Shown here: positions 7,395-56,050 of the stretch, in pieces
Layout: every line of letters begins with the position of its first letter
Position numbering within the stretch: the stretch's first letter is position 1
Origin: Rhodospirillales bacterium
GTDB lineage: Bacteria > Pseudomonadota > Alphaproteobacteria > Rhodospirillales > UBA2165
Assembly: GCA_965213765.1 (NCBI GenBank)
Contig: OZ243926.1
Span: 2,370,971-2,434,970, forward strand
Direction of reading: 5' to 3'
Length of the DNA: 64,000 nucleotides
Notes under the pieces: model-generated
What the model was told of the DNA's origin: nothing
Seen by the model: the letters and a program-made list of their open reading frames with translations, nothing else
The model's database searches: none
Position numbers and translations under genes: made by a program

Positions 7395-7422
7395 CAGTTG
7401 GGGAGGAACGATGACGGGTCGA

Positions 7423-11828: not shown

Positions 11829-11857
11829 TTGATTGATGTAGCACCCGGTGCTATATC
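11829..11857 (+). promoter_or_regulatory. Sigma-70-like promoter with an embedded palindromic operator for the toxin-antitoxin pair
   Basis: TTGATT, 17-nt spacer, TATATC. The spacer contains the perfect 7-1-7 palindrome tagcacc c ggtgcta (11839-11853). Confidence 0.5.
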
Positions 11858-11892
11858 GTCCGGCATGATGGAATGCGCTCGAGAGGTGCGTG

Positions 11893-17001: not shown

Positions 17002-17262
17002 TTGAGCCTCCCGGGTGAAGGATTGAAGTTCACAAATTGAGGAACGGCCTCCGTCGCAGTTCCAAGATTCCCCAACTTGATGGGCACCAATGTCGCAATT
17101 CATGCCTGCTATCGAGTTCAAAGTATCCGAGCCTGCCCTTCGGGAGACATGACACAATTCGCCATTAATTGGACGATAATCGACATCGAACAGGCGGCTG
17201 CGTCAAGTGGAATTGGCGGCTTGTGTTGCCGCGGCGCAGACCGGGCTTCGTAGCCTTCAGCG

Positions 17263-18991: not shown

Positions 18992-19546
18992 TTATTTGGC
19001 CCGGCTCGCCGCTGTCGGCGCCTTGAATTCCGTACCGGCGTCGAATGTCCATTCAGAGAATATGTCAGGCCCGACCTCAAACTCCCGGGTTTGCCACTTC
19101 TCCGTCATGATGTCCTCATCAGCGCAATATTCCAGCGCACCGCCCAGCGGACTGCGGAAATACCAAAAGCAAGCCGAGGAGATATAGTGGCGGCCCGGAC
19201 CAACCTGGGTCTTCCAACCGCGCCGGGTCAGAAACTGACCGCCCCCGATCACCTCATGAATGTCCCGGACCTTGAACGCGAGATGGTTGAACCTGGGCTT
19301 GCGGCCAGCGGTGTTCATGACAAACAGGTTGTGATGATTGCCGCGCCGGGCGGCGCGCAGGAAGACGCCCCGTTTCCGGTAACGGTCCGTCGCCCGGAAG
19401 CCGAGCCGGTCGCCGTAGAACGCTTCCACCACTCTGAAATCCGGCACCCCGAGGACGATATGGCTGATGGTCTGCGGCGTGGCACGCTCGTAAAATGTTG
19501 CCGCGCGGTCGACGCGGACGTCGTTGCCGGGCACGTTGAAGGGCAA
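18992..19546 (-). CDS. VOC (glyoxalase/extradiol dioxygenase) family protein, C-terminal-domain-like
   Basis: ISHIVLGVPDFRVVEAFYGDRLGFRATD..FNHLAFKVRDIHEV; TTG start. Confidence 0.7.
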   Translation of the reverse strand: MPFNVPGNDVRVDRAATFYERATPQTISHIVLGVPDFRVVEAFYGDRLGFRATDRYRKRGVFLRAARRGNHHNLFVMNTAGRKPRFNHLAFKVRDIHEVIGGGQFLTRRGWKTQVGPGRHYISSACFWYFRSPLGGALEYCADEDIMTEKWQTREFEVGPDIFSEWTFDAGTEFKAPTAASRAK

Positions 19547-26577: not shown

Positions 26578-26592
26578 TTGATTTTCAGGCCG

Positions 26593-29122: not shown

Positions 29123-29494
29123 GGCGATGAGTCCGTCCGGCCCGCGGCGGGGCCGGTTACGCCGATGGATATGCCCGCCTGAGTTTGCGCGAACCGTTGC
29201 GGACGGGCCGCATCCGGCCGCCAACCCGGTTCCTCCGCCAGCCTCGAACCCTCCTGCCATTGCAGGCCGGCAGTCCGATCAGCCGCCTCGACGACATTCT
29301 CCAAATGCCTTTCGGGCAGGCGCTGGCCCGCACCCCCGACGCTTCATCCTTACTGCCCGGCGGTAATGGGTTTGCGCTATATGCCGCCGCGCGGCGGAAG
29401 CGGAGCGCCTCGGCTCCGCGGATGGCGCGGCCTCCTGTCGGCAGCCTTCAGGGCCTGTCATGCCCTTGTCCCTGCGGCTCCTAAAGGTGGGCAG

Positions 29495-31345
29495 GCCAAC
29501 ATCACGTTTACCGACGCCACTATCACCATCAATGACGATGACGCGGCGCCGAGCGGCATCACGCTGAGCGTGGACACCAACGGTTCGACCTCGGGCACGC
29601 CGAGCACGGTGGCGGAGGACGCCGGGGCCACGGTGGTCACGGTAACGGCGACGGTGAACGGCACCACGCGTTACGTGGACGCCAAGACCGTGGCGGTGAG
29701 CGTGGATGACGGCACCGCGGAATCGCCCGCCGATTATGCGGCGGTGAGCGGCTTCAACATCACGATTGCCGCGGGCGCGGCCAGCCAGAGCGGCAGTTTC
29801 ACCGTGACGCCGGTGGACGACGACCTCGACGAGGCCAACGAGACGATCGACGTCACCGGCACGCTGACCGACATCACGATCACCGCCGCGACGGTGACGC
29901 TGACCGACACCGACGACCCGGTGAGCTTCTCGATCGCCGATGCCGAGGCCACCGAGGGCGGCAAGGTGGAGTTCACGGTGAGCCGCGAAGGGGCCGGGGA
30001 CAACGTGGCGTCGGTGAAGGTGACCACGGCCACGGACAGCGGCGATGGGGCCGATGCCGCCGATGCGGACGACTACACCGCCATCGCCACGGCGCAGACA
30101 TTGAACTTTGCCAAGGGCGTCGCCAGTCAGACGGTGGAGGTGCAGACCACGCAGGACGACCTGTTCGAGCCGGACGAGACGTTCAAGGCGGTCCTGAGCG
30201 CCCCGGCGCTTGGGGAGAACGACCCCGGCACCGGGGTGAGCATTGAGTCGGGCAAGGGCACGGCCACGGGGACAATCAAGAACGACGACACCGAGCCGTC
30301 GTTTGCGGTGGCGGACGCCAGCGCGTCGGAGGGCGATGCCATCACCTTCACGGTGACCCGCTCCGGGGCGATGGACAACGCGGTGTCGGTGAAGTGGAAC
30401 ACCAAGGCGGCGACCGGGGCGGGCGCGGCTTCGATCAGCGATTACACCGCTGTGACGGCGCCGGCGACGCTGACCTTCGCCAAGGGCGTGAGCAGCCAGA
30501 CCTTCACGGTCGCCACCACGGAGGACACGCTGGATGAGGGCAACGAGACCTTCCTGGTGGAGCTGACCGGGGCGGTGGGCGGCACGATTGCCACGGCCGA
30601 GGCCACCGGCACCATCAATGACGATGACGCGGCGCCGAGCGGCATCACGCTGAGCGTGGACACGAACGGTTCGACCGCGGGCACGCCGAGCACGGTGGCG
30701 GAGGACGCCGGGGCCACGGTGGTCACGGTGACGGCGACGGTGAACGGCACGACCCGCTACGTGGATGCCAAGACCGTGGTGGTGAGCGTGGATGACGGCA
30801 CCGCGGAATCGCCCGCCGATTATGCGGCGGTGAGCGGCTTCAACATCACGATTGCCGCGGGCGCGGCCAGCCAGAGCGGCAGTTTCACCGTGACGCCGGT
30901 GGACGACGACCTCGACGAGGCCAACGAGACGATCGACGTCACCGGCACGCTGACGCCCACCGATGACGACCTGCACGAGGGCAGCGAGACGATTGACGTT
31001 ACCGGTACCTCGAACGCGCTCACCATCACCAAGGCTTCGATCACCCTTGAAGACGACGACGCTCAACCGTCGTTTGCGGTGGCCGACGCGAGCGCGTCGG
31101 AGGGCGACGCGATCACCTTTACGGTGACCCGTAGCGGGGCGATGGACAACGCGGTGTCGGTGAAGTGGAACACCAAGGCGGCCACCGGGGCGGGCGCGGC
31201 TTCGACCACCGACTACACCGCGATGCCCACGGCGACGAAGCTGGATTTCGCCAAGGGCGTGGGCAGCCAGACCTTCGCGGTCGCCACCACCGAGGACACG
31301 CTGAACGAGGCCAACGAGACCTTCCTGATAGAGCTGACCGATCCC
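29495..31345 (+). pseudogene. Calx-beta repeat adhesin-like gene fragment (both ends missing) with a 1086-bp internal tandem duplication
   Basis: Repeated ..ADYAAVSG..ITIAAGAASQSGSFTVTPVDDDLDEANETIDV.. and ..DYTA....L.FAKGV.SQTF.V.TTEDTL.E.NETF.. units. No signal peptide. Blocks 29528-29868 and 30614-30954 are near-identical. Confidence 0.8.
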
Positions 31346-31485
31346 GTCGGCATCACGGTGAGCACGTTGCGGCCGGCCAGGAGCGCCTCGATGGCCGCTT
31401 CCTGGCCCGGCCGGAACCCGTCGAACCCAAATACATCCCTCAGCACCTGGCGTGCGGCGGCTGTCGGTTCCTCCAACGTGCGCAT
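31342..31485 (-). pseudogene. RecQ helicase N-terminal stub (about 48 aa)
   Basis: MRTLEEPTAAARQVLRDVFGFDGFRPGQEAAIEALLAGRNVLTVMPTG, then the homology stops where the Calx-beta fragment abuts. Confidence 0.6.
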
Positions 31486-31528
31486 CAGTGCCGAAACCGG
31501 GAGAGGTCAACCAGGGATCAGGCGGAGA

Positions 31529-31813
31529 TCACGCGCCCGCCGCCCTCTTCAACGCGGCGGACGGCCGGAATTTGAGAACCTTGGAGGCCTTGATCCGGAT
31601 CGCTTCGCCCGTCCGCGGATTGCGGCCCTTGCGCGCCGGACGCCTGGTAATGGTGAAGGTGCCGAAGTTGCCGATGGTGTAGCGGCCTTCCTTCTTCGAC
31701 TTCTTCAGCCCGGCCTCGATCTCGCCCAGGACAAGGTCGACCGTGCGCTTGGCCTCCGCCTTGCTCATGTTGCCCTTCGCGGCGATGTTCTCGATGAATG
31801 CGGCTCTGCTCAT
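31529..31813 (-). CDS. HU/IHF-family nucleoid-associated DNA-binding protein
   Basis: ..FGTFTITRRPARKGRNPRTGEAIRIKASKVLKFRPSAALK. Confidence 0.9.
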   Translation of the reverse strand: MSRAAFIENIAAKGNMSKAEAKRTVDLVLGEIEAGLKKSKKEGRYTIGNFGTFTITRRPARKGRNPRTGEAIRIKASKVLKFRPSAALKRAAGA

Positions 31814-32033
31814 GATGTGTGGCCTCTTTGTTTTCCGAACCGAAACTGTCTCACAAGGCCGCTACATATAGTGGCCTCATGCCTGTGTGTATACTATAAA
31901 CGGCTCCAGGTTGCATATGATCGCGGCTCCCTGTTCGAACCGCGCGGCTGGGCGGTAATGCAGGAAGCAGCCACGGCGGCGTTTCTCCAAGGAAGCCGCG
32001 CACCGGATTCGCGTGCTTGAAGAACTATAGCGG

Positions 32034-32375
32034 ATGCGCTATATGGTGGAGATGGACTGGACGGTCGAAACCGTGTCGGCCGTTGACGCCGAAATCGCGG
32101 CCTTGCCGGTAGCGTTGCGCGCGCGGTTGTTGCGGCTGCTTGAGACGGTGGAGAATGTCGGGCTGGAGACTCTTCGCGCACCGCATGTCAAACATCTCGA
32201 TGGGAAGCTCTGGGAGCTTCGGGTGCGGGCAGACGGCGGTATCGCACGAGGGATCTACGTAACGGCGGCGGGCCGGCGGGTGGTGGTGTTGCACGTCTTC
32301 GCGAAGAAATCGCGCAAGACGCCGCGCCGAGCGCTCGCGACCGCCAGGGAGCGGATGAAGCAGGTGATGACATGA
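32034..32375 (+). CDS. RelE/ParE-superfamily toxin (Gp49/HigB-like)
   Basis: ..HVKHLDGKLWELRVRADGGIARGIYVTAAGRRVVVLHVFAKKSRKTPRRALATARERM. Confidence 0.8.
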   Translation: MRYMVEMDWTVETVSAVDAEIAALPVALRARLLRLLETVENVGLETLRAPHVKHLDGKLWELRVRADGGIARGIYVTAAGRRVVVLHVFAKKSRKTPRRALATARERMKQVMT

Positions 32376-32656
32376 CGAAGCTGAGGGATCTGAAGGCGCG
32401 CTTGATGGAGGATCCGGAGTTCCGGGAGGAATACGTGCGCGTCGACGAGGAGTATGCGCTCATTGAGGCGTTGGTCCGCGCCCGCGCGGCGGCGAAGCTG
32501 ACGCAGGCGGAGCTTGCCCGGCGGCTCGGCACGACCCAGTCGGCGGTCGCTCGGCTGGAAGGCGGACGGGTGTCTCCGTCCTTCGCGACCCTTCGCCGCT
32601 ATGCCGAAGCGACCGGCACGCGGCTGACCGTGGGCCTTGTGCCGGCTGACGGCTGA
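32372..32656 (+). CDS. XRE-family HTH antitoxin (HigA-like)
   Basis: ATGA overlap with the toxin gene; ..KLTQAELARRLGTTQSAVARLEGGRVSPSFATLRRYAEATG. Confidence 0.85.
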   Translation: MTKLRDLKARLMEDPEFREEYVRVDEEYALIEALVRARAAAKLTQAELARRLGTTQSAVARLEGGRVSPSFATLRRYAEATGTRLTVGLVPADG

Positions 32657-35329: not shown

Positions 35330-35355
35330 GGCGCACAGTACCGGATGATCGCGCA

Positions 35356-35554: not shown

Positions 35555-36529
35555 ATGGGCGTCTTCGGCGAGGCAGGTATGGGCACCAACGCGATCATGC
35601 GCGAGACCGGCAAGTCCAAGACTTGCGTCTGGCGCTGGCAGGAGCGCTTTGCTGAAGAGGGCGTAGAGGGCCTGCTGCGCGACAAGACCAGACCCTCGCG
35701 AATTGCGCCGCTGCCGCCCGAGGTGGCCGGGCGGGTGGTGGAACTGACCTTCACCGAGCCGCCCGCCGAGGCCACGCACTGGACCGGAGCGATGATGGCC
35801 GAGGCAGTCGGGATCAGCGTCAGTTCGGTACACCGCATCTGGCGGGCCCACGGCCTGCGGCCGCACCGGGTGCGCCAGTTCAAGCTCTCCAACGATCCCG
35901 AGTTCGTCACCAAGCTGCGCGACGTGGTCGGGCTCTATGTCGATCCCCCCGCCCACGCCATCGTCCTCTCGGTCGATGAGAAGTCGCAGATCCAAGCCCT
36001 CGATCGCACTCAGCCCGGCCTGCCCCTGAAGAAGGGTCGGGCCGGCACCATGACCCACGACTACAAACGCAACGGTACCACCACCCTGTTTGCCGCCCTC
36101 AACGTGCTCGACGGCACCGTGATCGGGCGCTGTATGCAGCGCCACCGTCACCAGGAATTCCTCCGCTTCTTGAAGGCCGTCGAGCGTGAGGCGCCAGTCG
36201 GCAAGATGGTGCACGTGATCCTCGACAACTATGCCGCCCACAAGCATCCCAAGGTGCGCGCCTGGCTCGCCCGTCATCCGCGCTTCGTCTTCCACTTCGT
36301 GCCGACCTCGTGCTCCTGGCTCAACGCCGTCGAGGGATACTTCGCCAAGCTCTCCAGACGCCGTCTCAAGCGCGGTGTCTTCAGATCCGTGGTCGACCTG
36401 CAAACCGCCATCAATCGATTCATCGACGAGACCAATGATGACCCCAAGCCCTTCGTCTGGACCGCCGATCCCGACAAAATTATCGCCGCCGTCAAACGGG
36501 GGCATCAAATGTTAGATTCAATCCACTAG
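35555..36529 (+). mobile_element. IS630-family transposase, probably 5'-truncated element
   Basis: ..THWTGAMMAEAVGIS..SVDEKSQIQALDR..ILDNYAAHKHPKV..FVPTSCSWLNAVEGYF.. The usual N-terminal ~30 aa are missing, and no left-end partner was found for the right end ..ttagattcaatccactag. Confidence 0.85.
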
Positions 36530-36713: not shown

Positions 36714-37901
36714 TCAATCCTCGACGAGTCTGGAACCGACGTCGTGATCACCCACGAGGTTCCCGCCGATGCTTTCTGTGATGCGCGCCGCAGCGGTCTG
36801 AATCGAGTCCCGCGCCAGATGCGCGTAGCGCGCCGTCGTTTGCACCTGGGTGTGCCCGAGCAGTTTCCCGATCATGGTCAGGCTCTCGCCGAGAGCCAGC
36901 GCACGCGAGGCAAAAGAATGTCTCAGATCGTGGATCCGCACGTCCTCGAGGCCCGCCTGCTTGCGGATGCGCTGCCAGGGGCGTTGCAGGTCGGTGAGGT
37001 GAGAGCCGGGGAGGCGGCCCGCGATGACCCAGGGATTGTCATCGTCACGGGGAATGGCTGACAACACCGCCCGGGCCTCGGGGCCCAGAGGTACGACCCG
37101 TCCGCCGGTCTTGGCGTCGGGAAGCTCGATGCAATCGTCCTTGACGTACTCCCAGCGCAGGAACTGGATCTCCGACAGCCGGCAGCCGGTCAGCAGCAAC
37201 AAGCGGAAGGCGGCGACCGCCGAGGGCATCTCTTCTTCGGCCTCGCGCAGGACCTGGCCCAGCCGTTCCGTCTCTTCCGGCGACAGGAAGCGCTCCCGCT
37301 TGTGCTCCTTGTAGCGCTTGACATGCCGGCAGGGATTGGAGCCGTCGGGTCGCCAGCCCCAGACTTCGGCAAGGGAGAACATTTTGGATAGCACTGCGAG
37401 CGTCCGGTTGGCCTGATAGGGTTTGTCCCGCAGGCCGTGATGCAGGGCGGCAATATCCTTGCGCTGCACCTCCGGAACCTGCAACTCACCGATCACGGGG
37501 TCGACAAACAGCCTCACCGAACGGCGGTACTCTTCCCGGGTGCTCGGCTTGCAGTGGACAGGGACATATTCCTCCAGGAACCTGCGTCCGAGATCAGCCA
37601 TGTTCCGCTCGGCTTCGCGCCGGGCGTCCGCGTCGCGGGGGTCGATGCCTTTCTTCGCGGAAGCCAATATCTCAAGCGCGCGGGCACGCGCCTGATCCGG
37701 GTTCAGAGGCCCATGCGGGCCGATGGTGAACCAGCACAGTTTCCCGGCGATGCGGGTCTGAACGACGTAGCTCTTGCGTCCCGAGCGCCGAACACGCAGG
37801 CCGAAGCCTGTGAGTTCTCCATCCCAATAGACGGTATCCGTCCCACCGGCCTTGACGGCATCGACGGAGCGCTTGGTGATACGGGGGATGCGGTTTGCCA
37901 C
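36714..37901 (-). CDS. int: Tyrosine recombinase, P4-type integrase with DUF4102 arm-binding domain
   Basis: GTG 37901 with an AAGGAG RBS; ..YWDGELTGFGLRVRRSGRKSYVVQ..; catalytic region ..LLLLTGCRLSEI.., ..HDLRHSFAS.., ..LLGHTQVQTTARYAH. Confidence 0.9.
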   Translation of the reverse strand: MANRIPRITKRSVDAVKAGGTDTVYWDGELTGFGLRVRRSGRKSYVVQTRIAGKLCWFTIGPHGPLNPDQARARALEILASAKKGIDPRDADARREAERNMADLGRRFLEEYVPVHCKPSTREEYRRSVRLFVDPVIGELQVPEVQRKDIAALHHGLRDKPYQANRTLAVLSKMFSLAEVWGWRPDGSNPCRHVKRYKEHKRERFLSPEETERLGQVLREAEEEMPSAVAAFRLLLLTGCRLSEIQFLRWEYVKDDCIELPDAKTGGRVVPLGPEARAVLSAIPRDDDNPWVIAGRLPGSHLTDLQRPWQRIRKQAGLEDVRIHDLRHSFASRALALGESLTMIGKLLGHTQVQTTARYAHLARDSIQTAAARITESIGGNLVGDHDVGSRLVED

Positions 37902-37939
37902 GGCATTGCTCCTTGACGGGGGAGGGAGCATGTATCATC

Positions 37940-38172: not shown

Positions 38173-39474
38173 CTACAATGCGGTTCTCGGCAGCCACAAC
38201 GCTATCTGCGAAAACAGGAGCAGCAGAACCAGCAATACGGTCTGCGCCGCGACAAATGGGATCACGCCCTTATAGATCGTCATCAGCGGCACATCGTTCG
38301 CCATGCCTTTTAGGACAAAGACGTTGATGCCCATCGGCGGCGTTATAAGCGCGAGTTCGACCACAACGACGATCACGATGCCGAACCAAACGGGATCAAA
38401 GCCCAGGCCAATCACCAGCGGGAAAAAGACCGGGATCGTCAACAAGATCATGGCCAGCGTGTCCAGCACGGCACCCAGGACGATGTAAATCAGGAGGATG
38501 ACGATCATCATGCCCATGGGTGTCAGGGATAGCCCCGCCATGAAACTCTCGATCATCGTCGGAACTTGAGCCAGCGCCATAAAATTCTTGAAGATGATGG
38601 CGCCGATCAGGAGCGTAAAGATCATCGCCGTCGTGCGAACGGTATCGAGGAGCGCCGCCATGAAACTGGCGCGGCTCACGCGTCGGCCCAGCAGACCCAA
38701 CAGCCACGCGCCCACCGCGCCGATCCCCGCAGCCTCCGTGGGCGTAAACACGCCGAGATAAATACCGCCCAAAACAACGGTGAAGAGCGCAAGCGTGCCC
38801 CCGATCTTCCGGAAGGCGGCGCGCTTTTCGGCCGCCGTCGACGGCTCGCCCGGCGGCCCCATCGAAGGTCGAACCAGCGTTACCAGCCAAACCACAATAA
38901 GGAAAAGTACGACCAACAGAATTCCCGGAATAACCCCGGCCAAGAAAAGATCGCCGATGCTGGTCTCGGTCAGTATGCCGTAGAGCACCATGATGACGCT
39001 GGGTGGAATGAGGATGCCGATCGTGCCGCCTGCGGCGATCACCCCGGTCGCCAACTGGTCGCTATAGCCGTACCGCCGCATTTCCGGCAGGGCGACCTGG
39101 CTCATCGTGGCGGCGGTCGCGAGCGAAGACCCCGATATGGCACCAAACGCGCCGCAGGCGCCGACGGTCGCCATGCCCAATCCGCCGCGTCGGCCGCCCC
39201 ACCATGTGTTGAAAGCGCTGTAAAGATCGCCGCTCAGCCCGGCACTGGTCGCGAAGAAACCCATCAAAAGGAACAAAGGAATGACACTGAGTTCGAAGTT
39301 GAAGGCGGTTTCGAGCACCGTCTGTCCCAACAAGGCTAGGGCCGCATCCGGTGACAGGATGACCAGCATGCCGAGGAAACCGGCAAGCGCCATCGCGAAC
39401 CCGATATGCATGCCGAACGCCAGCAGCACGAACATAAGCCCGGTGACAAGCAGCGCGGCAAGCGGGGCGCTCAT
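38173..39474 (-). CDS. TRAP transporter large permease (DctM family)
   Basis: 433-aa polytopic protein, paralogous to 14102-15412. Confidence 0.95.
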   Translation of the reverse strand: MSAPLAALLVTGLMFVLLAFGMHIGFAMALAGFLGMLVILSPDAALALLGQTVLETAFNFELSVIPLFLLMGFFATSAGLSGDLYSAFNTWWGGRRGGLGMATVGACGAFGAISGSSLATAATMSQVALPEMRRYGYSDQLATGVIAAGGTIGILIPPSVIMVLYGILTETSIGDLFLAGVIPGILLVVLFLIVVWLVTLVRPSMGPPGEPSTAAEKRAAFRKIGGTLALFTVVLGGIYLGVFTPTEAAGIGAVGAWLLGLLGRRVSRASFMAALLDTVRTTAMIFTLLIGAIIFKNFMALAQVPTMIESFMAGLSLTPMGMMIVILLIYIVLGAVLDTLAMILLTIPVFFPLVIGLGFDPVWFGIVIVVVVELALITPPMGINVFVLKGMANDVPLMTIYKGVIPFVAAQTVLLVLLLLFSQIALWLPRTAL

Positions 39475-40019
39475 GGATCGATCCGTTCCTCAGGGGTCGG
39501 TCTTTGGAACAGCGTCAAGCCCGCCCGGTGGAGGTGGAACAATAGTCCGGCGACCATGGTCAAGCTGCAGGCGGCCATAACCAGCGCGGCCGCCCAGACC
39601 GGCAAGCCCAGTACCTGTGTTTCGTTCAACTCCCGGGTCTGATCGAGCGCCACCAGGAGCAGCTGCCAGCACATCAATGCCGCGATGGTAAGGCTTAGGA
39701 CATGGACGATGACATTGACCAATGCCTGAATCGTGTGGGGCATGATCCGCGTCAGGACGTCGACGCGGATATGGCCCTCCTCGAATGTCGTAAGGCCGAC
39801 GCCGAGAAAAACCAGCATCCCCATCAGCAGGAAGATGATCTCGACGGAACCGGTAATGGGCCGGTTGAATACGAACCGTCCGATGACGTCAATGAATGTG
39901 ACGTACATCATCAGGGCGAGAACCATCGCCGCCCCGATTGCCAGAATGTACGCGACACGCCCGACGAACCGGCCGACAGGGCCTTGTGCCGGTGATTTCG
40001 ATTCGTCGGGGGTATTCAC
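39471..40019 (-). CDS. TRAP transporter small permease (DctQ family)
   Basis: 182-aa four-TM protein with a 4-nt overlap with the DctM gene. Confidence 0.9.
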   Translation of the reverse strand: MNTPDESKSPAQGPVGRFVGRVAYILAIGAAMVLALMMYVTFIDVIGRFVFNRPITGSVEIIFLLMGMLVFLGVGLTTFEEGHIRVDVLTRIMPHTIQALVNVIVHVLSLTIAALMCWQLLLVALDQTRELNETQVLGLPVWAAALVMAACSLTMVAGLLFHLHRAGLTLFQRPTPEERIDP

Positions 40020-40050
40020 ATCGGTGCCGTTTTGACCGTATCGTTGGGCG

Positions 40051-41082
40051 CTACTCGTACTTTTTGACGGTTTTTCGAAGATCGGCCATCGATGCCTTTC
40101 CGTTCAGGCCGGCGGCGTTTGCTTTCTTGATCCAACCCTCCTCGAAGAAGGACGTGACAGACCGGAGTTTGGCGGTATCGGCATCGCCCAGAATGACGAT
40201 CTTGTTGCCGTTCGCGACGGCAGCCTGTTTCGCCTTCGCCTCAACGGCGTCCCAGCGCTGGCCGATCAACTTTGATCCCGACAGTCCGTTGTCGGAGAAC
40301 GCCTTTTGTTGGGCCGGCGTCAAACCGCTCCAGGCCTTTTTGCTCATGGCGATCCAGAAGGCCGTCGAATACAGGCCGTTGGGGATCACCAGGTGATGGG
40401 TGGTCATTTTCGTGAGCCGAAAACCGGCAAGGCCTTCCCACGGAAACTGGGTTGCGTCGACCGTGCCACGTTGAACCGCCTCGGTGACACCGCTCGGCGG
40501 AATGAATACCGGGGCGGCGCCGAGGCGTTTCAGTATCTCGATGCCGATACCGCCGGCCCTCACCTTCAGCCCCTTGAGATCGCCGAGGCCGTTGATCGGC
40601 TTGCGCGAATGATAAAGAAATGGCGCCGGCGTGAAGGCGCCGATCAGCTTGGCGTCGTGAAACTCCTTGTCGGCCTGGCCGGTGCGCATGTACCAGTCCC
40701 ACATGCCGGCTGAACCGGAAGTCGCGTTATTGACCGTAAAGGGAACTTCAATCCCCCGAAACAGCTGAAAACGCTTGGGCGTAAACGCCGCGACACCAAA
40801 GGCGATATCGGCGATTCCTTTCTTGACCAAGTCATACTGGCCGGGCGCCTTGGCCAGGGGCGCTTTCATCAGGTTGATCTTGACCGATCCGCCGGACGCC
40901 TTTTCGATTACGGCGGCCCATATCGGTATCGCCTTTTGCATGTGGTGAACCGGCGGCAGCCAATTCGCCATGCGAAGGTCTTTGGTTTGCGCGGCGGCGC
41001 CACCCGATCCGCCGATTGCGAGACCGGCGGCCGCCGCCAAGGCCAGCACGTAGTTGGGTCTAATTTTCAAGTATTTATTCAT
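40051..41082 (-). CDS. TRAP substrate-binding protein (DctP family)
   Basis: ATG 41082 with an AGGAGG RBS; signal peptide MNKYLKIRPNYVLALAAAAGLAIGGSGGAAA. Confidence 0.9.
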   Translation of the reverse strand: MNKYLKIRPNYVLALAAAAGLAIGGSGGAAAQTKDLRMANWLPPVHHMQKAIPIWAAVIEKASGGSVKINLMKAPLAKAPGQYDLVKKGIADIAFGVAAFTPKRFQLFRGIEVPFTVNNATSGSAGMWDWYMRTGQADKEFHDAKLIGAFTPAPFLYHSRKPINGLGDLKGLKVRAGGIGIEILKRLGAAPVFIPPSGVTEAVQRGTVDATQFPWEGLAGFRLTKMTTHHLVIPNGLYSTAFWIAMSKKAWSGLTPAQQKAFSDNGLSGSKLIGQRWDAVEAKAKQAAVANGNKIVILGDADTAKLRSVTSFFEEGWIKKANAAGLNGKASMADLRKTVKKYE

Positions 41083-41159
41083 TTCATACCTCCTATTGAG
41101 CATTTGTGTTAAGTCTCGCCGCTGTCGGAAGCGGTCGTTTCAAGGACTGGCAGCGAACT

Positions 41160-41822
41160 CTATTCCGCAGCGGCCGCGGCACCGATCACGGCTTGAATCG
41201 CGGCCTCCCATTCTTCCGGATAAAAGCCTTGCGGCCCCTGCGCGGAGCGAAATGTCACTCTGCCCTCCGTATCAACGACGAACAGCCGGTCGGGCCACGC
41301 GCGATAAGCCGCCTCGATCTGGTTGGTCATATCGTCGAGCAGCATCGGCATCTCGAGGTTGAGGGCAAGGACGCATGCCTCCGCCGCGTCGGCCCGCTCA
41401 TCGATGGTCGTCGGTTGATCGATGACGATGCCCAGCTTTGCATTCCGTTCAGAGCGGTAGCCGCCGTCGCTATCCTCCGGATGCGCTTCTTTGATATAGG
41501 CGCAGTAAAAATCGATCTGGTCCTTGTAGGACCGGTAGATATCGTTCAGGCGCACGGCCTGATCACGAAAGGGGGGTCACGTATATGAGCCCATCACCAG
41601 CGCGACGGGCCTGCCCCGCGTTGAGGAAAGCCGGAACATCTCTCCTGTCCGCCGGCCCTTTGCGTCGAGACGCTCGACCTCGAAGTCCGGCGCCTCCGAT
41701 CCGACCGCCGGTGTGCCTTTATCCCATTCGGCCTTTGCGGCCGCGTAAGAGTCGAACTCCTCCTTCGAAATGCCCCAGTTTACCCATGGCCGGGCTGGGA
41801 CTTTATTGTCGAGTTCGGCCAT
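41160..41822 (-). CDS. Iodothyronine-deiodinase-like thioredoxin-fold protein with an in-frame TGA (candidate selenocysteine) at 41577-41579
   Basis: ORFs 41577..41825 and 41160..41555 are in one frame across the TGA: ..GRPVALVMGSYT-TGA-PPFRDQAVRLNDIYRSYKDQIDFYCAYIKEAHPEDS..WPDRLFVVDTEGRVTFRSAQGPQGFYPEEW. Confidence 0.75.
41542..41568 (-). promoter_or_regulatory. Candidate bacterial SECIS stem-loop
   Basis: RNA UCGU-ga-UCAGGC-cgugc-GCCUGA-ACGA starting 8 nt after the UGA: a 4-bp lower stem, 2-nt bulge, 6-bp upper stem and a GU-containing 5-nt loop. Confidence 0.5.
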
Positions 41823-41936
41823 CACTTGTCTCCTCTTGTTGCCGCATCATTAATTTCCGTGTGTCAGTCGCAATGCGTTCCGAATTGCCGGTGCGATTGC
41901 CCCGGCCTCGACCCCATATCACTCTTATCGGAAAGT

Positions 41937-42725
41937 CTAATCATGGCCCCAACTCGATTCACGGATCCATTTGAGAAAAGCCGTGTCGAATTGCGGCCGG
42001 GAACTGACGCGATCGTACCAGGCTTCAACGTTGGGAAATGGGCTGAAGTCGAATTCACCGATTTTCTGCGTTGTGACCGTCGGGGCCCAGGACATGTCCG
42101 CCAGTGTATACACGCCGCCGACAATGTACTCGGAATTGGCCAGAATGCCGTCCATTTCCTGATAAATCTCGTTCATCAGTCTGGTCGCCTCGGCGGCATC
42201 CTCTTCGGTGAGGCTCGATCCGGGCGCACCATGTTTTGCGTGAAATTCCAGGTGGGCGGGATCGGTTTGCAGTTCCCGGTATCGATTATACTCTTCCTCC
42301 GATTTTTCCAGGAGCCTGGCGACGCGTTTATAATATTGAAGCGTCTTGATGCCCGGCAAATGAATCTCACCAGATAATTTGAGCCAACGGTCGATCTTCG
42401 GCTGATCCTCGTCGGCAACCGCGCGAAACCCCGGCTCGGGAAATTGGTCTTCGAGATACGCCATTATATCGTTCGATTCGACGACCACCGTGCCGTCGTG
42501 AACCAGCGCCGGCACCAAGCCTTTCGGATGAATGCCGAAATATTCTTCACTGATGTTTTCCTTGGTCTTGAGATTGATGTGATGGCTGACCCAGGGAAGC
42601 TCCTTCTCCTCAAGCAACAGCCGGACCCGCGCCGAGCAGTTTGAACGATCCGCGTGGTAGAGATGGATACCTTCGAAATCGAGGACGGATTTGTTGGTTG
42701 GCTCAACGATTGGCATGGGTGGCAA
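41937..42725 (-). CDS. Glutathione S-transferase family protein with an N-terminal S-N-C-S motif (Cys-type)
   Basis: ..IHLYHADRSNCSARVRLLLEEKELP..HPKGLVPALVHDGTVVVESNDIMAYL.. Lies upstream of, and co-oriented with, the deiodinase-like gene. Confidence 0.85.
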   Translation of the reverse strand: MPPMPIVEPTNKSVLDFEGIHLYHADRSNCSARVRLLLEEKELPWVSHHINLKTKENISEEYFGIHPKGLVPALVHDGTVVVESNDIMAYLEDQFPEPGFRAVADEDQPKIDRWLKLSGEIHLPGIKTLQYYKRVARLLEKSEEEYNRYRELQTDPAHLEFHAKHGAPGSSLTEEDAAEATRLMNEIYQEMDGILANSEYIVGGVYTLADMSWAPTVTTQKIGEFDFSPFPNVEAWYDRVSSRPQFDTAFLKWIRESSWGHD

Positions 42726-43095
42726 TCCTCCTAAAATCGATCCGGCAGATGCCTATGCATCTGCCAGGACAAAGTCCGCGCCGCCCCGGCACCCACGATG
42801 ACGTAGTCGAATTCCAATTCTTCAGTCATTAAGACCACCTGTTCCCGGATCGTGAGTTCATCTGCCGGAAGCCCCTGTCACTTTGCGAGGCATTGCCGGA
42901 CAGTGCCCCTCAACACTCCTACTGAGTGCGGAACCCTGTTTATTAAATGTGAACCACCTGTTCATTCTTATAGTGAAAGTAAATTCACGTTTATTTTTCA
43001 TTGATTGTCAAGTCCCGCGACTCTACTCTTGGCTAAGGACTGCCGGACAGCTCCAAGTTGGAACTGCCAACAAGCCCCATCCGAAAGCTTGAATT

Positions 43096-43783: not shown

Positions 43784-44860
43784 ATGAACTTCGAACGGGT
43801 CGGATTACTCCGTTGGGACAAGAAAAAAGCTCAACCCGGCTACACGATATTGGGTAACCTCTATTCGTCGCAGGTGCGCCTCATCGACATGAACGGCGCA
43901 GAGGTTCACACCTGGACATTGCCGGAACCCAGTCAACTTGGTTCGTACGGGCAGCTCCTGCCCGGCGGCAACCTTCTCGTTCCGATCGCATTGTTTCAGG
44001 GCCCTCCATTGCGGACAGCCAAAGGCGGCCGCATCGTCGAGCTCGATTGGAAAGGTAATGTCGTTTGGGAGTATACCGACACCTCCCAGCACCACGACAT
44101 TCGGCGGCTTCCCAATGGCAACACGGTCTACATTGGGTGGCGCGAGATGGCGGACGAGGACGCCGCCCGGGTCCAGGGGGGCGTTCCCGGGACCGAGATG
44201 GAAGGCAAAATTTACGAAGACTATTTTCGGGAAATCTCGCCCGAGGGTGAAACGGTATGGGAATTCGGAACTTCCGAACTGGAGATTGAGAACTATCCCA
44301 TTTCACCCGGCTCACGGCGCTCCGAGTTCGGCCACGCAAACACCATTTGTCCGCTCCCGGACGGCAATCTCCTCGTCAATTTCCGCAATCTCGATACGAT
44401 CGCGATCCTTGGCCGTGAGGAGCGCCGGTTCATTTGGGAAAAGCGTGATATCAGCTGGGGACGAGGCCACGATCCCCAGATGCTCGACAATGGCAACATC
44501 TTGTTCTTTGCGAACGGCGCCCATGACCTCACCTTACCGATGCGCTCCAGCATTATAGAACTGGACGGGAAAAGCGGTGACGAAGTCTGGCGCTACGAAG
44601 CCGACATCGCGTGGACGTTCTTCAGCCATATCATGAGCGGCGTTCAGCCTCAGCCCAACGGCAACCTCTTAATATGCGAGGCCGTCAACGGGCGGGTATT
44701 CGAGATTACGAAGAACGAGGATCATTGCGAGATCGTGTGGGAATACATCAATCCCCGCTTCGAGACGCCGATCATAACAACCAAAAGCAAATGCAACGCC
44801 ATGTTCCGCGCCTATCGCTATTCCCCTGACGGGCCCGAACTCGCGGGGCGTGGCCTATAA
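43784..44860 (+). CDS. Arylsulfotransferase (ASST)-like beta-propeller protein
   Basis: Recurrent LP(G/N/D)GN(L/T)L(V) blades: LPGGNLLV, LPNGNTVY, LPDGNLLV, LDNGNILF, QPNGNLLI. Family call made from memory of ASST proteins. Confidence 0.6.
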   Translation: MNFERVGLLRWDKKKAQPGYTILGNLYSSQVRLIDMNGAEVHTWTLPEPSQLGSYGQLLPGGNLLVPIALFQGPPLRTAKGGRIVELDWKGNVVWEYTDTSQHHDIRRLPNGNTVYIGWREMADEDAARVQGGVPGTEMEGKIYEDYFREISPEGETVWEFGTSELEIENYPISPGSRRSEFGHANTICPLPDGNLLVNFRNLDTIAILGREERRFIWEKRDISWGRGHDPQMLDNGNILFFANGAHDLTLPMRSSIIELDGKSGDEVWRYEADIAWTFFSHIMSGVQPQPNGNLLICEAVNGRVFEITKNEDHCEIVWEYINPRFETPIITTKSKCNAMFRAYRYSPDGPELAGRGL

Positions 44861-44877
44861 TCGAACGAGGACCCAGT

Positions 44878-46788
44878 ATGGTTAAGGCCTACCCACTACC
44901 CGATCCCGGCACCGCCACGAATGTGACGATGGCAGCCAATGCGAAGGTGGCCCAATCGCTTCCGCTGGCCGATCAATCGGACTTCGAGAAAGCCCGCAAA
45001 GGTCTCATCGCTTCGATCGACGGGCCGATCGAGACCGATGACGGCCGTACCGTCATGGATCCAGGCGCCTTTGCCTTTCTTGATGGTCCGGCGGCCGACA
45101 CGGTTAACCCTTCCCTCTGGCGTCAGGGGCAACTCAACGCCATCCATGGCCTGTTCGAAGTTGCGGACGGCATCTACCAGGTCAGGGGGTATGACATTTC
45201 CCTCATGACCTTGATCCGCGGCGAGACCGGCTGGATTATTGTCGATTGTCTGATCTCGATAGAAACCGCTAGAGCCGCCGTGAAGCTGGCGATGGACCAT
45301 CTGGGCGAACGCCCGATCAGCGCGGTGTTGATCACCCATACGCATGCCGACCATTTCGGCGGCAGCCGCGGCGTCTTGACGGACGATATGATCGCCGATG
45401 GCGACATCCCCATAATTGTTCCCGAGGGTTTCACACGATATTCCGTGAGCGAGGCGGTTCTGGCCGGCAACCAAATGGCACGCCGGGCGATGTATCAGTT
45501 CGGTCTCTTGGTGCCCCCGGGGCCCGCCGGCTTTGTAGATAGCGGGATCGGCAAGTCCAACGCGAAGGGCAATCGAAGCTTTGTGTTGCCGACCAAGGAA
45601 ATTTCGAAGACCGGCGAACGGCTGACGGTTGACGGCGTTGAGTTTGTCTTCCAGATGGCCTCAGGCACCGAGGCACCGTCTGAGTTCATATTCTACCTAC
45701 CTCAGCATAAGGCGTTGTGCATGGCCGAGGTCACCTGCCGTACCATGCACAATATTTTGACCTTGCGCGGCGCTGAGGTTCGCGACCCTCTCCAATGGTC
45801 GGCGTGCATCGACGAGTCGCTGAATATGTTTGGCGACGAAGTCGAAATCTATTTCGCCTGTCACAACTGGCCGGAATGGGGAAACGAGAACATCCGCGAG
45901 TACCTGGAAGAGCAGCGCGATATCTATCGCTATATCCATGATCAGACTCTCCGGCTGGCGAACACCGGCTATACACCTCGGGAAATTGCCGAGGAGGTAG
46001 AAGAGCCCGAGTTCATGAAGCAGTCCTTTTCCGTGCGCGGATATTACGGGACGCTGAACCACAATCTGAAAGCAACTTACCAAAAATATTACGGTTACTT
46101 TGATGGCAATCCCGCTCATCTCGAGCCCCACACGCCGGTTGAGGAGGGCAAGAGATACGTCCAGGCGATGGGCGGCAGCGACGCCGTTTTGGACCTCGCA
46201 TGGTCGGCATTCGAAGCGGGAGACTACCGCTGGGCCGCAACGATTCTCAATCACTTGGTCTTCGCTGAGCCTTCTAACGAAACAGCAAGAGCGATGCTGG
46301 CATCGACATATGAGCAGCTCGGTTTCCAAGCGGAGTCGGTCATTTGGCGCAACATCTATCTCTGTGGAGCTCACGAACTACGAGAGGGCGTAAAACCGCG
46401 TCAGAGAGTCGGTGGGGTCAACGAAGATATCGCGCGGGCTATGCCGATCGGTGACTTCTTCAATCTCCTCGCCGTCAAACTCGACCCGGCAAAGGCGAAG
46501 TCTGTCGACTGCGCCATCAATTTTGAACTCACGGACTCGGATGAGAGTGTCGTGGTGACTGTTGGAAAACAGGTCGAGAACCACAAGCTCAATGCGCGGG
46601 ATGATGACGCAGACCTGACCGTTTCACTAACTCGAACTACGCTCAACGATATCGCGTACGGCCGCAGTTCCATTGATGACGCCATGGAGAGTGGCTCGGT
46701 CAATGTGACCGGTAGTGTCGACACGTTTAAGGCCTACCTCGAAATGCACGATACATTCGATTTGTGGTTCAACGTCGTTGAGCCCTAG
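44878..46788 (+). CDS. Alkyl/aryl-sulfatase (MBL-fold, SdsA1/BDS1 type)
   Basis: ..ITHTHADHFGGSRGV.. metallo-beta-lactamase motif, with a dimerisation region and an SCP2-like C-terminus; 636 aa. Confidence 0.9.
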   Translation: MVKAYPLPDPGTATNVTMAANAKVAQSLPLADQSDFEKARKGLIASIDGPIETDDGRTVMDPGAFAFLDGPAADTVNPSLWRQGQLNAIHGLFEVADGIYQVRGYDISLMTLIRGETGWIIVDCLISIETARAAVKLAMDHLGERPISAVLITHTHADHFGGSRGVLTDDMIADGDIPIIVPEGFTRYSVSEAVLAGNQMARRAMYQFGLLVPPGPAGFVDSGIGKSNAKGNRSFVLPTKEISKTGERLTVDGVEFVFQMASGTEAPSEFIFYLPQHKALCMAEVTCRTMHNILTLRGAEVRDPLQWSACIDESLNMFGDEVEIYFACHNWPEWGNENIREYLEEQRDIYRYIHDQTLRLANTGYTPREIAEEVEEPEFMKQSFSVRGYYGTLNHNLKATYQKYYGYFDGNPAHLEPHTPVEEGKRYVQAMGGSDAVLDLAWSAFEAGDYRWAATILNHLVFAEPSNETARAMLASTYEQLGFQAESVIWRNIYLCGAHELREGVKPRQRVGGVNEDIARAMPIGDFFNLLAVKLDPAKAKSVDCAINFELTDSDESVVVTVGKQVENHKLNARDDDADLTVSLTRTTLNDIAYGRSSIDDAMESGSVNVTGSVDTFKAYLEMHDTFDLWFNVVEP

Positions 46789-46828
46789 TGCCGTGTCGAG
46801 AGTAGCCGATTGACTTGAGGAGGATTTG

Positions 46829-47656
46829 ATGGCCCTGGAACTCTATTATCTTGAGGAGACTGACTCGATTTGCTCGAATCGAGTTGTTGTAACCCTGTCC
46901 GAGAAGGGAATTGCCGACTGGGTTCCCCACAAGATGATCCTCATGAACAGGGATCAGTTCACCCCGGAATATCTAAAGCTAAATCCGAATGGCACGGTTC
47001 CGACACTTGTTCACGATGGTGCCGTCATCCGAGAATCTTCTCTGATTTGCAGCTATATTGACAATTTGAAGGCTGATCCGCCGCTGTCGCCCAGTGACCT
47101 GGTTGAGCGCTATCACATGGCCGAATTCATAAAGTTATTTGATGAGCGAGGATTTGCGGCCACCGGGATCATCAACTTCGTGACCAAGTTTCGCCTGACG
47201 ATCCCACGGGACAAATTGGAAGAACGCTGGAAGCACATTCCGGTCATTGATCGCCTTCATCGTCAGCAGTCCGTTATCAGGGAGGGTCTCGACTCCCTTT
47301 ATGTACTGCGTGCCATCGGTGCCTGGGAAACTATCTTCCGGCGGATGGAGGCGGCGCTGGCTGACGGAAGGCCTTATCTTATGGGTGACCAGTTCACGCT
47401 GGCGGAAACCAACTCGGCGACGTTCGTCAAGGTGATCGAAATGATTCGCTTCCTGGATTTCTGGCTTGAGCCCTACCCGAAGACCAGAGAATGGTGGGAC
47501 CGGGTTTCAAGCCGGCCGAGCATGCAGCAACTGGACACTTTTGCGAGTAACGCGGTCTCCGAGGATTCGCCCCATGCCAAGGCTGGGCGCGAGTGTGAAG
47601 CAGGCTTTCGCAATAAAATTGAAAAATACCGGGAGCAATTTGCGCACGCTTTGTAG
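46829..47656 (+). CDS. Glutathione S-transferase family protein with an N-terminal S-I-C-S motif (PcpC/LinD-like Cys-type)
   Basis: MALELYYLEETDSICSNRVVVTLSEKGI..DQFTPEYLKLNPNGTVPTLVHDGAVIRESSLI. Confidence 0.8.
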   Translation: MALELYYLEETDSICSNRVVVTLSEKGIADWVPHKMILMNRDQFTPEYLKLNPNGTVPTLVHDGAVIRESSLICSYIDNLKADPPLSPSDLVERYHMAEFIKLFDERGFAATGIINFVTKFRLTIPRDKLEERWKHIPVIDRLHRQQSVIREGLDSLYVLRAIGAWETIFRRMEAALADGRPYLMGDQFTLAETNSATFVKVIEMIRFLDFWLEPYPKTREWWDRVSSRPSMQQLDTFASNAVSEDSPHAKAGRECEAGFRNKIEKYREQFAHAL

Positions 47657-55039: not shown

Positions 55040-56050
55040 ATGAAGCCGTTACATGCCGTCAAATTAATTTCGCTGCTCAGTGGCATCACCCTATTGAGCC
55101 TTACCGCTACCTCAGTTGCCGCGAAAGACTACATCCTTAACACCGCGTCTACGGGCGGAACCTATCATCCGGTGGGCACCGCCATCGCCACCTTGTCCAA
55201 GGTGAAGCTTCTGCCGAAGAAGAAGTTCAGCCTGACCGCTGTAAACTCCGCCGGTTCGGGTGCCAACGTCCAGGCCTTGGGCGCTAACACGGCACAGTTT
55301 GCAATTCTACAGGGTCTGTTCGGTTCCTACGCTGTGACCGGTACCGGCCCGGTGTCGGCGCCCCAGAAGAACCTGCGCTCGGTCACCATGCTTTGGCAGA
55401 ACGTCGAGCAGTTCGTGTTGTCAAATCAACACGTCAAGAAGGGCACGGTCAGCGACCTTGTAACCCTGAAGGGCATGTCCATGGGGATGGGTCGGCAAAA
55501 CTCCGGCACCATCGGTTCCAACCGAGTACTAATGTCCGGCCTCGGCGTCGACATCGCCAAAGACTATAAGCTGGTTTACGCGGGCTACGGTCCAACCGCC
55601 GATGCCCTGGCCAACGGACAGGCTGTCGGCGCTGGCATCCCCGCCGGGCCACCGACCGGTGCGATCACCAAGCTGATGGCGTCCAACGCCGCAAAGTTCA
55701 CGCTGCTCAACGTTACCCCCGATGAAGCCAAAAAAATGGACGGCGGACGCAATCTGTGGGTGCCCTACACCATTAAGGCCGGCACCTATCCGGGTCAGAC
55801 CAAAGACGTGCAAACCATCGCCCAACCGAACTTCCTCGGCGTGAACGCCGATGTGAATTCGGAGCACGTCTATCTGCTGATCAAGGCAATCTACGAGAAC
55901 CTGCCGTTCCTGCAGGCCATCCATCCGGCCACCAAGGCAATGGACGTGAAGAGGTCCATGGCCGGCTTGCCGGCGCCGTTGCACCCCGGTGCGGCGCGCT
56001 ACTACAAGGAAGTGGGACTTTCCATTCCCGCCCACCTGATGGCCAAGTAG
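55040..56050 (+). CDS. TAXI-family TRAP solute receptor
   Basis: Signal peptide; ..TASTGGTYHPVGTAIA.., ..AGTYPGQ.., ..PLHPGAARYYKE.. hallmark segments. Confidence 0.9.
   Translation: MKPLHAVKLISLLSGITLLSLTATSVAAKDYILNTASTGGTYHPVGTAIATLSKVKLLPKKKFSLTAVNSAGSGANVQALGANTAQFAILQGLFGSYAVTGTGPVSAPQKNLRSVTMLWQNVEQFVLSNQHVKKGTVSDLVTLKGMSMGMGRQNSGTIGSNRVLMSGLGVDIAKDYKLVYAGYGPTADALANGQAVGAGIPAGPPTGAITKLMASNAAKFTLLNVTPDEAKKMDGGRNLWVPYTIKAGTYPGQTKDVQTIAQPNFLGVNADVNSEHVYLLIKAIYENLPFLQAIHPATKAMDVKRSMAGLPAPLHPGAARYYKEVGLSIPAHLMAK

Follow-up and report, generated by a model that had tools for sequence, protein, structure and literature searches.

The deiodinase-like proteins of bacteria are the counterpart of the thyroid-hormone deiodinases of animals. 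A 'deiodinase-like protein' of Pfam family PF00837 was described as a new bacterial selenoprotein family from the Sargasso Sea, and the family was found to contain selenocysteine (Sec) and Cys forms together with bacterial selenocysteine insertion sequence (SECIS) elements (Zhang, Fomenko and Gladyshev 2005, Genome Biol 6:R37; PMC1088965). A 2026 review lists the deiodinase-like protein among the prokaryotic selenoprotein families, with function unknown (PMC13188914). In the present analysis, a 64,000-nucleotide stretch of contig OZ243926.1 from a Rhodospirillales bacterium (the whole stretch is hereafter called the window) was found to contain a deiodinase-like gene with an in-frame TGA. The region 41822..41160 on the minus strand is, with high confidence, one gene for a soluble deiodinase-like selenoprotein of ~25 kDa, in which the UGA would be read as Sec. 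As the family was reported in 2005, the present gene is a further member and its detection a correct rediscovery; this kind of gene has been known since then, and the locus is of value because its annotation can be corrected and because it offers a lead, open to test, on what the family does.

The locus shares with the bacterial deiodinase-like family the PF00837 domain, a UGA at the deiodinase active site, the occurrence of Sec and Cys forms and a marine origin, followed by the presence of a SECIS-type hairpin directly downstream with a G nucleotide in a small apical loop. The motif of the family is given as UxxC in the review (PMC13188914), whereas the present gene and 80 further loci were found to contain U-P-P-F, without a Cys at position +3. 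The subfamily of the window gene was also found to contain an 'EDSDGGY' stretch where 'DGW' is usual, and a cluster of glutathione S-transferase (GST), tripartite ATP-independent periplasmic (TRAP) transporter and sulfatase genes.

A colinear catalytic domain, the Sec column and the Ser-x-Thr-Sec/Tyr/Glu/His relay are shared with vertebrate DIO1-3 (4TR3, 9H48). The vertebrate enzymes contain an N-terminal membrane anchor, which the bacterial protein lacks, and their SECIS element is located in the 3′ untranslated region, whereas the present one lies inside the coding sequence as in the bacterial type. The SECIS of E. coli fdhF is likewise a hairpin directly 3′ of the UGA within the open reading frame (ORF), with a small loop and a conserved G (GU), but its sequence is unrelated to that of the present hairpin, and the deiodinase-like family instead uses two hairpin registers. 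In the bacterial SECIS consensus of Zhang and Gladyshev from 2005, the apical loop is reportedly placed 16-37 nt after the UGA; the apical loop of the present hairpin starts 20 nt after the UGA, inside this range.

The NCBIfam family NF038285 (deiodinase_rel) has a homologous C-terminal domain and matched the joined product with 172.2 bits (E 2e-50), below its curated cutoff of 250; the match spans profile positions 175-340 of 347 only, so NF038285 contains ~170 additional N-terminal residues that are absent here. Peroxiredoxins and ResA/TlpA proteins also have a thioredoxin-like fold, and their nucleophile too is located where the first helix begins, at its N-terminus; their scores were lower, and they contain PxxxTxxC or CxxC where the present protein contains T-U-P-P-F.

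Frame, product and family of the interrupted gene

The minus strand from 41822 to 41160 was found to form a single frame of 220 codons, of which the only internal stop is the TGA at 41579..41577 (translation of 41825..41157). The ORF track splits this frame into 41577..41825 (minus strand, 82 aa) and 41160..41555 (minus strand, 131 aa). The peptide was found to contain GRPVALVMGSYT directly before the TGA, followed by the presence of PPFRDQAVRLNDIY directly after it. The features of the gene are as follows.

41160..41822, minus strand: complete predicted coding sequence of the deiodinase-like selenoprotein, 220 codons, with ATG at 41822..41820, Sec codon 82 and the stop TAG at 41162..41160
41577..41579, minus strand: in-frame TGA, the putative selenocysteine codon 82 of the motif GSYT-U-PPF, in the Sec170 column of mouse Dio3
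41830..41834, minus strand: Shine-Dalgarno-like AGGAG, 7 nt upstream of the ATG, read from the sequence

The product has ~24.6 kDa and a pI of 4.6 and does not contain a hydrophobic segment; its maximum 19-residue Kyte-Doolittle mean is 1.2, and a membrane anchor is therefore absent. The Met start and the N-terminal motif MA[DE]xDNKVP...WGISKEEF were found to be kept in the close relatives of the window gene.

The deiodinase-like product has a thioredoxin/peroxiredoxin-like fold and belongs to PF00837. With Cys put in place of the stop for scoring, the joined product matched Pfam T4_deiodinase (PF00837) with 77.7 bits (cutoff 27, E 1e-21), and residues 40-207 were aligned to profile positions 75-231 of 237. 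A secondary Pfam match to AhpC-TSA (PF00578, 41 bits) covered residues 40-102 only. Neither a full-length match to that domain nor the peroxiredoxin motif PxxxT/SxxC was found, the motif here being GSYT-U-PPF with the Thr adjoining the Sec. In a phmmer search of the PDB, mouse Dio3 (4TR3) was matched over residues 40-205 with E 2.9e-16 and the TGA codon fell on the Sec170 column, followed by Dio2 (9H48) with E 5.7e-9; the identity to the vertebrate deiodinases was ~24-30%.

Four residues of Dio3 were not conserved in this phmmer alignment, His219 being replaced by P137, Arg275 by Q195, Cys239 by M158 and Trp207 by the 'SDGGY' stretch. The substrate-clamp and auxiliary roles of these Dio3 residues (Arg275, His219, Trp207, Cys239) are taken in part from PMC11592359; Schweizer et al. 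in 2014 are also said to have assigned such roles to them. The binding of thyronines is not expected, because none of the four is conserved, and the product should not be equated with the thyroid-hormone deiodinases of animals.

The catalytic proton relay of Dio2 has been described as Ser-x-Thr before the Sec, followed by Tyr, Glu and His (PMC11592359). The corresponding residues of the present protein, S79, T81, Y109, E112 and H114, were found to be invariant in the alignment of full-length homologues. The structure of orthologue P0002, which is 58% identical to the window protein, was modelled with AlphaFold at a predicted local distance difference test score (pLDDT) of 93. In comparison of this model with the PDB, Dio3 4TR3 was ranked first (E 8e-12) and Dio2 9H48 second (template modelling score 0.81), followed by ResA/TlpA proteins and peroxiredoxins; judged on the P0002 model, the predicted fold is nearer to Dio2/Dio3 than to other thioredoxin-fold proteins.

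A Cys at residue 150 (codon 41373-41375, motif AEAC) was found to be kept in at least 90% of 63 relatives and to be absent from mammalian deiodinases. It is a candidate resolving cysteine.

The earlier note, which was made from the sequence alone, had joined the same two ORFs in one frame across the TGA into a 220-aa product from ATG 41822, and the translation agrees with both statements. The colinearity with vertebrate deiodinases that it had pointed out was borne out by the PF00837 and Dio3 matches, and its claim that the TGA falls exactly on the selenocysteine by the alignment with Sec170 of mouse Dio3.

Conservation of the TGA codon and of the hairpin

A species-level scan with one genome per GTDB species, in which loci were located by the motif YI[KRQ]EAHP and thus blind to the TGA codon, gave 80 loci with 39-54% identity from ~10 phyla. 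The loci were from Alphaproteobacteria, Burkholderiales, Myxococcota and other delta-type lineages, Chloroflexota, Acidobacteriota and Planctomycetota, and further from Armatimonadota, Actinomycetota, Poribacteria and Opitutales. The codon within GSYT-x-PPF was TGA in 82 of 82 gene copies from the 80 species-representative genomes and TGG in none. All eleven closer relatives (L081-L090, L094, L095), with 68-99% identity, were also found to contain TGA.

In a large protein database, the joined product was found to have 157 relatives. About 110 of the 120 relatives listed (157 in all) are fragments of 122-166 aa that start just past the TGA, with identities from 98% to 40%. The full-length entries P0030, P0031, P0044, P0060 and P0062 contained Cys at the Sec position, and a Cys codon, TGT or TGC, was found at loci L091-L093. 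Entries P0002, P0007, P0019, P0020 and P0057 contained W at this position; these are most simply read as translations of the same TGA by pipelines that use genetic code 4, because TGG was found at none of the genome loci.

A Nei-Gojobori analysis was made of seven sequences from the subfamily to which the window gene belongs. The ratio of nonsynonymous to synonymous substitution rates (dN/dS) was 0.04-0.3 upstream of the TGA, where the proportion of synonymous differences (pS) was 0.5-0.77 and synonymous sites were near saturation, and 0.03-0.18 downstream. These values indicate that purifying selection acts on both sides of the TGA. The first 12 codons past the TGA showed a pS of 0-0.33 against 0.5-0.77 elsewhere, and therefore an RNA constraint appears to be laid over the coding sequence.

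The RNA directly after the TGA was found to contain the following elements of a SECIS-like hairpin, as given by the minimum free energy (MFE) fold of the region.

41542..41568, minus strand: SECIS-like hairpin, internal to the coding sequence and beginning 8 nt past the UGA
41568..41565 with 41545..41542, minus strand: lower stem UCGU/ACGA
41564..41563, minus strand: GA bulge
41562..41557 with 41551..41546, minus strand: upper stem UCAGGC/GCCUGA
41556..41552, minus strand: apical loop CGUGC, with the conserved G at 41555

For comparison, 79 distinct segments of 48 nt from the TGA were aligned codon-anchored and ungapped, so that the alignment was not fitted to any structure. In this alignment, the structure of the window hairpin paired 75% of the cells, against 21-39% when the 3′ partner was slid by 1-3 columns, and 66 cells were double changes; none of 500 shuffles attained the observed values. 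Over the two tallies of pairing that were made, the corresponding ranges were 75-82%, 20-39% and 51-66 cells. The upper-stem pair 19-33 was CG in 37 segments, GC in 18, AU in 8 and UA in 3, and the pair 18-34 was UA in 28 and CG in 17.

Two registers of the hairpin were found. In 60 of the 79 segments, mostly from Proteobacteria and Chloroflexota, the stem is located at +18..+34 with a 5-nt loop of the CGUGC or CGGGC type, and the second loop base, G25, was invariant in 59 sequences. In the other register, found in Acidobacteriota, Planctomycetota and delta-type lineages, the stem is shifted upstream by 4 nt to +14..+30 and is capped by a loop of GGU or GGC; it was also compensated (GCGGGA/UCCCGC against UGCCCA/UGGGCA). 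The peptide over the hairpin differs by register, being AVRLN in one and VPALN or AGHLE in the other.

A covariance model, R1, was built from 59 distant sequences with the window excluded. It found a single site in the window, 41532..41579 on the minus strand, with 65.8 bits and E 5e-17, followed by a runner-up of 10.5 bits. The TGA relatives scored 54-70 bits and the loci with the shifted register 24-36 bits, whereas the three Cys-form genes scored 17, 13 and below threshold. The hairpin was weak or absent in two of the three Cys forms. From these comparisons, which place the hairpin well outside what chance would give, it is predicted to act as a bacterial SECIS.

Three expectations of the earlier note were confirmed by these data: the stem-loop 8 nt past the UGA, with the stems, bulge and loop that it had named, was reproduced as the MFE structure; the hairpin was kept with compensatory changes across orthologues where TGA is present; and the downstream frame, described there as free of decay, has dN/dS values as low as those of the upstream part. 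The inspection of the codon in relatives that it had proposed gave TGA throughout, with true Cys forms elsewhere. Its statement that standard gene callers mis-split the gene holds as well, the closer relatives being annotated with the same split into ORFs of 81-86 aa and 131-133 aa. Its interpretation of the locus as a candidate bacterial selenoprotein is supported, and each of its proposed checks that was run gave a favourable result. All public assemblies that were examined show the gene either as a pair of hypothetical ORFs or in a translation under an incorrect genetic code, and ~90% of the relatives among the database matches listed are C-terminal fragments. The conserved codon, the motif and the R1 model provide a simple means to repair such annotations and to flag genomes that use Sec.

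Some copies of the gene were found to differ in arrangement. At L087 (2733-3396), an 86%-identical relative, the frame is lost upstream of residue ~60 and an IS110-family transposase immediately precedes the gene, so that the copy is disrupted or the assembly wrong at this place. Locus L049 (OZ240228.1), a metagenome-assembled genome (MAG) of Dehalococcoidia, contained three copies of the TGA gene within 6 kb, at 10130, 10899 and 15909, of which two are in tandem and the third diverges past the EAHP motif and may be truncated. L017 and L019 are two paralogues in one alphaproteobacterial MAG.

Selenocysteine machinery, genetic code and the readings of the TGA

Genes of the Sec machinery were found next to the deiodinase-like gene in several Alphaproteobacteria. 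Locus L039 was found to contain the deiodinase-like gene followed by the presence of selA (TIGR00474, 604 bits), selB (TIGR00475, 440 bits) and tRNA-SeC, and these genes appear to form one operon at 10001-14094. In L031 (6238-10594), tRNA-SeC, selB and selA are divergent from the deiodinase-like gene, and L034, L036 and L012 likewise carry these three genes next to it. In these sel-linked Alphaproteobacteria the Sec machinery may have the deiodinase-like gene as one of its principal clients, and the near-exclusive use of Sec together with the selA-selB-selC operons means that in some genomes the gene may be a main reason to keep that machinery. The source genome of the window presumably has a working Sec machinery.

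The genetic code of the window is standard. Among 27 genes of the window that were validated with Pfam, 5 end in TGA and no internal stop was found, and an alternative genetic code was rejected on these counts; dctQ, for example, ends in TGA with an ATGA overlap onto dctM. The remaining stops of the 27 genes were TAG in 15 and TAA in 7. In the apparently native segments (12000-26634 and 38091-64000, ~56-58% GC), TGA stops were found in 1 of 15 and 0 of 7 ORFs of a greedy ORF set, and ORFs of the GC-rich island (26635-38090) and of the first 12 kb end mostly in TGA. A stop usage rich in TAG was also found in the relatives L081, L082, L085 and L089. Such usage is unusual; in bacteria, TAG is normally the least used of the stops.

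When the window was scanned for read-through of TGA codons without further criteria, which is too noisy in GC-rich DNA, 198 candidates were obtained; a filter on codon-position GC reduced them to 14. No other credible selenoprotein gene was found among the candidates that were checked against mapped genes or with Pfam, a check that left aside the two in the GC-rich first 12 kb (TGAs 1539 and 2640). Those rejected were antisense to real genes (for example OsmC 18482..18970 and glyoxalase 18992..19546) or downstream of normal stops, such as that of the YspA-like gene 5563..6678.

Several observations weigh against the reading of the UGA as Sec. The 64-kb window contained no tRNA-Sec (ARAGORN found no tRNA at all), and selA, selB and selD were not found in it, the ORFs of fitting size being other proteins. 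The stability of the hairpin by itself is unremarkable, with a z of -1.29 and 24 of 200 shuffles folding as well, and its significance must come from the comparison with relatives. In that comparison the lower stem received little support over the family as a whole (37-70% paired, hardly any double changes), and the Cys-form locus L093 (TGT; 589-636), which may be a recent Sec-to-Cys conversion, retained 6 of 7 pairs of the shifted-register hairpin. No Rfam family was found for the hairpin, either in the whole window at the gathering threshold or in a permissive scan of 41450..41650.

If the TGA were a true stop, the locus would be a pseudogene or two small genes, an N-terminal one of 81 aa and a C-terminal one of 131 aa from GTG 41555. 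The split is indeed annotated by gene callers everywhere, TGA serves as a stop elsewhere in the window and the Sec machinery of the source genome was not seen within the 64 kb. Against this, the same TGA is contained in all orthologues from ~10 phyla over 39-99% identity, and a codon so old and so universal is therefore not an accidental nonsense mutation. In every case the two halves lie side by side in the same frame and form one thioredoxin-fold domain, with GSYT-x-PPF straddling the TGA; both are under purifying selection, and the 131-aa fragment would lack not only the catalytic residue but also the beta strands with which the fold begins. A true stop is very improbable and, on the comparative data, effectively refuted. 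That the UGA is translated but not as Sec, namely as Trp or Gly via an alternative code or as Cys or Trp via near-cognate read-through, would agree with the five W entries and with the rarity of TGA stops in the native parts of the genome. It is hardly credible when set against the 82 TGA codons without any TGG and the most simply code-4 origin of the W entries, the termination of validated genes such as dctQ by TGA with no internal TGA in any other validated gene, and the aligned position, where homologues contain Cys and the mammalian deiodinases Sec. The covarying hairpin with a G in the apical loop at the right distance, and the orthologues that lie in operons with selA, selB and tRNA-Sec, also speak against it.

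Under the favoured reading of the UGA as Sec, the hairpin would recruit SelB.GTP.Sec-tRNA(Sec) to the ribosome at UGA codon 82, where selenocysteine would be inserted, and translation would then proceed to the TAG at 41160.

Gene neighbourhood and possible function

The selenoprotein gene was found to be located between a GST gene directly upstream and dctPQM (38173..41103, minus strand) directly downstream, and further genes lie divergently beyond the GST gene.

41937..42725, minus strand: glutathione S-transferase with GST_N and GST_C domains, maiA/GstA-like below threshold
40051..41103 (likely start 41082), minus strand: dctP, Pfam DctP; TRAP_S1
39471..40019, minus strand: dctQ, Pfam DctQ
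38173..39474, minus strand: dctM, Pfam DctM
43784..44860, plus strand: arylsulfotransferase-like gene, divergent neighbour
44878..46788, plus strand: alkyl sulfatase, divergent neighbour
46826..47656, plus strand: second GST, divergent neighbour

A terminator-like hairpin was found at 42767..42742 upstream of the GST gene, and none between it and the selenoprotein gene; no terminator-like site was found between GST, selenoprotein gene and dctPQM (38173..42725, minus strand). The GST 41937..42725 is probably the first gene of the selenoprotein transcription unit, and a functional link of the genes at 43784..47656 to the selenoprotein gene may be supposed.

The module of GST, alkyl sulfatase, arylsulfotransferase-like gene, GST, selenoprotein gene and dctPQM was also found in the near-identical genomes L081 and L094 and in L095. 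Locus L095 is contig LXNI01002839.1 (GCA_001752985.1) from a metagenome of the Mediterranean sponge Sarcotragus foetidus, and the selenoprotein of L094/L095 differs from the window protein by only 2 amino acids. This recurrence points to a sponge-associated bacterium. In relatives with 68-71% identity, L085 and L086, other catabolic genes follow the selenoprotein gene: L085 was found to contain an extradiol-dioxygenase-like gene, a GST, a flavin adenine dinucleotide (FAD) aromatic hydroxylase and a TRAP system, and L086 a GST, hydroxylases, a TRAP system, a glyoxalase-type dioxygenase and an FAA hydrolase. Sulfatase or sulfotransferase neighbours are present at the window locus, L085, L086, L087 and L003. 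The catabolic context in a sponge-associated lineage provides a concrete, testable substrate hypothesis.

The Sec82 would act as a redox nucleophile aided by Ser79, Thr81, Tyr109, Glu112 and His114, and the oxidised selenium (a selenenyl halide, selenenic acid or selenenylsulfide) would be recycled by thiols, for which the near-invariant Cys150 and, via the co-transcribed GST, glutathione are candidates. The most specific hypothesis, because of the near-exclusive use of Sec, the conserved relay residues and the gene context, is that the protein reductively dehalogenates a small phenolic acid, perhaps a sulfated one, that is imported by the adjoining TRAP transporter; it is put forward tentatively and with a probability well below even. 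The odds are about the same that the protein acts as a peroxidase or as some other thiol oxidoreductase.

The dehalogenase proposal is weakened by the four non-conserved Dio3 residues and by a neighbourhood that is not shared across the family, and no characterised bacterial member was found in the literature searched. Among 85 loci, compared by phmmer with the neighbours of the window gene and by all-vs-all clustering of flanking ORFs, no family-wide shared neighbourhood was found beyond the sel genes in 5-6 loci, and the TRAP/GST context was confined to the window's own subfamily.

The product could also be a selenoprotein with a generic role, either a peroxiredoxin-like peroxidase or a thiol-disulfide oxidoreductase, in which Sec82 is oxidised by peroxide or disulfide and reduced by glutathione or thioredoxin; this is a serious possibility, though one held with less than even confidence. 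It is consistent with the secondary AhpC-TSA match (41 bits), with ResA/TlpA and peroxiredoxins as the next-best structural matches of the P0002 model, with a neighbourhood that varies as widely as for a stand-alone antioxidant and with a 1-Cys peroxiredoxin near the gene in L089. It also fits the view that most bacterial thioredoxin-fold selenoproteins are redox proteins (PMC1088965, PMC13188914). The sequence and fold, on the other hand, are nearer to deiodinases than to any peroxiredoxin, the Thr adjoins the Sec (T-U) in place of the PxxxTxxC spacing, and the deiodinase proton-relay residues are invariant. Sec forms far outnumber Cys forms among the relatives, in a tally whose ranking of matches favours relatives of a Sec-type query; such an excess is unusual for redox families and suggests a chemistry that specifically needs selenium. 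The association of the window's subfamily with aromatic-catabolism, GST and TRAP genes likewise argues against a generic role.

A more detailed form of the dehalogenase proposal, which is speculative and rather unlikely as a whole, takes the window's subfamily as a cytoplasmic Se-dependent reductive dehalogenase that opens the catabolism of halogenated, perhaps sulfated phenolic acids produced by a marine sponge host or by the community around it. The TRAP transporter would take up the acids and the neighbouring sulfatase or sulfotransferase would desulfate them; the halide would then be removed at Sec82, with recycling by glutathione/GST, before ring hydroxylation and extradiol cleavage. Circumstantial support for this route comes from the catabolic neighbours in L085/L086, the sulfatase neighbours and the Sarcotragus foetidus cluster, and, equally circumstantially, from the near-exclusive use of Sec and the three copies in a Dehalococcoidia genome. 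If the proposal is true, deiodinase chemistry would be an ancient bacterial mechanism of dehalogenation that was recruited later by animals for thyroid hormones.

Signs of mobile DNA were found in other parts of the window. The segment 26635-38090 (11.46 kb, 63-65% GC), directly downstream of dctM, is missing from the otherwise 99-100% identical contig L081. It was found to contain a tyrosine integrase (36714..37931), a DDE_3 transposase (35555..36529), a helix-turn-helix protein (32144..32653) and an 884-aa Calx-beta protein (29366..32020), and it looks like a recently inserted genomic island. In a plasmid collection no DNA match was found and just one at the protein level, a 'deiodinase-like protein' with 27% identity on a Mycolicibacterium plasmid.

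The first 12 kb (1-12000) have 66.5% GC, and 10 of the 11 long ORFs tested there had no Pfam match. The Pfam-negative ORFs are 66..1268, 1734..2405, 2662..3285, 3321..4283, 5159..6370, 6675..7496, 8009..9943, 9947..10609 and 10106..11866, one of the ten being a frame alternative; the sole match was a YspA/SLOG-type domain at 5563..6678 (minus strand). This part of the window may be foreign or mobile DNA.

Two further TRAP systems were found in the window. The second contained DctP (16021..17157) and DctM (14102..15412), adjoining an AraC/DJ-1 regulator, and the third, which a sigma-54 two-component pair precedes upstream, contained an NMT1-type binding protein (55040..56050) and a fused DctQM (56142..58322).

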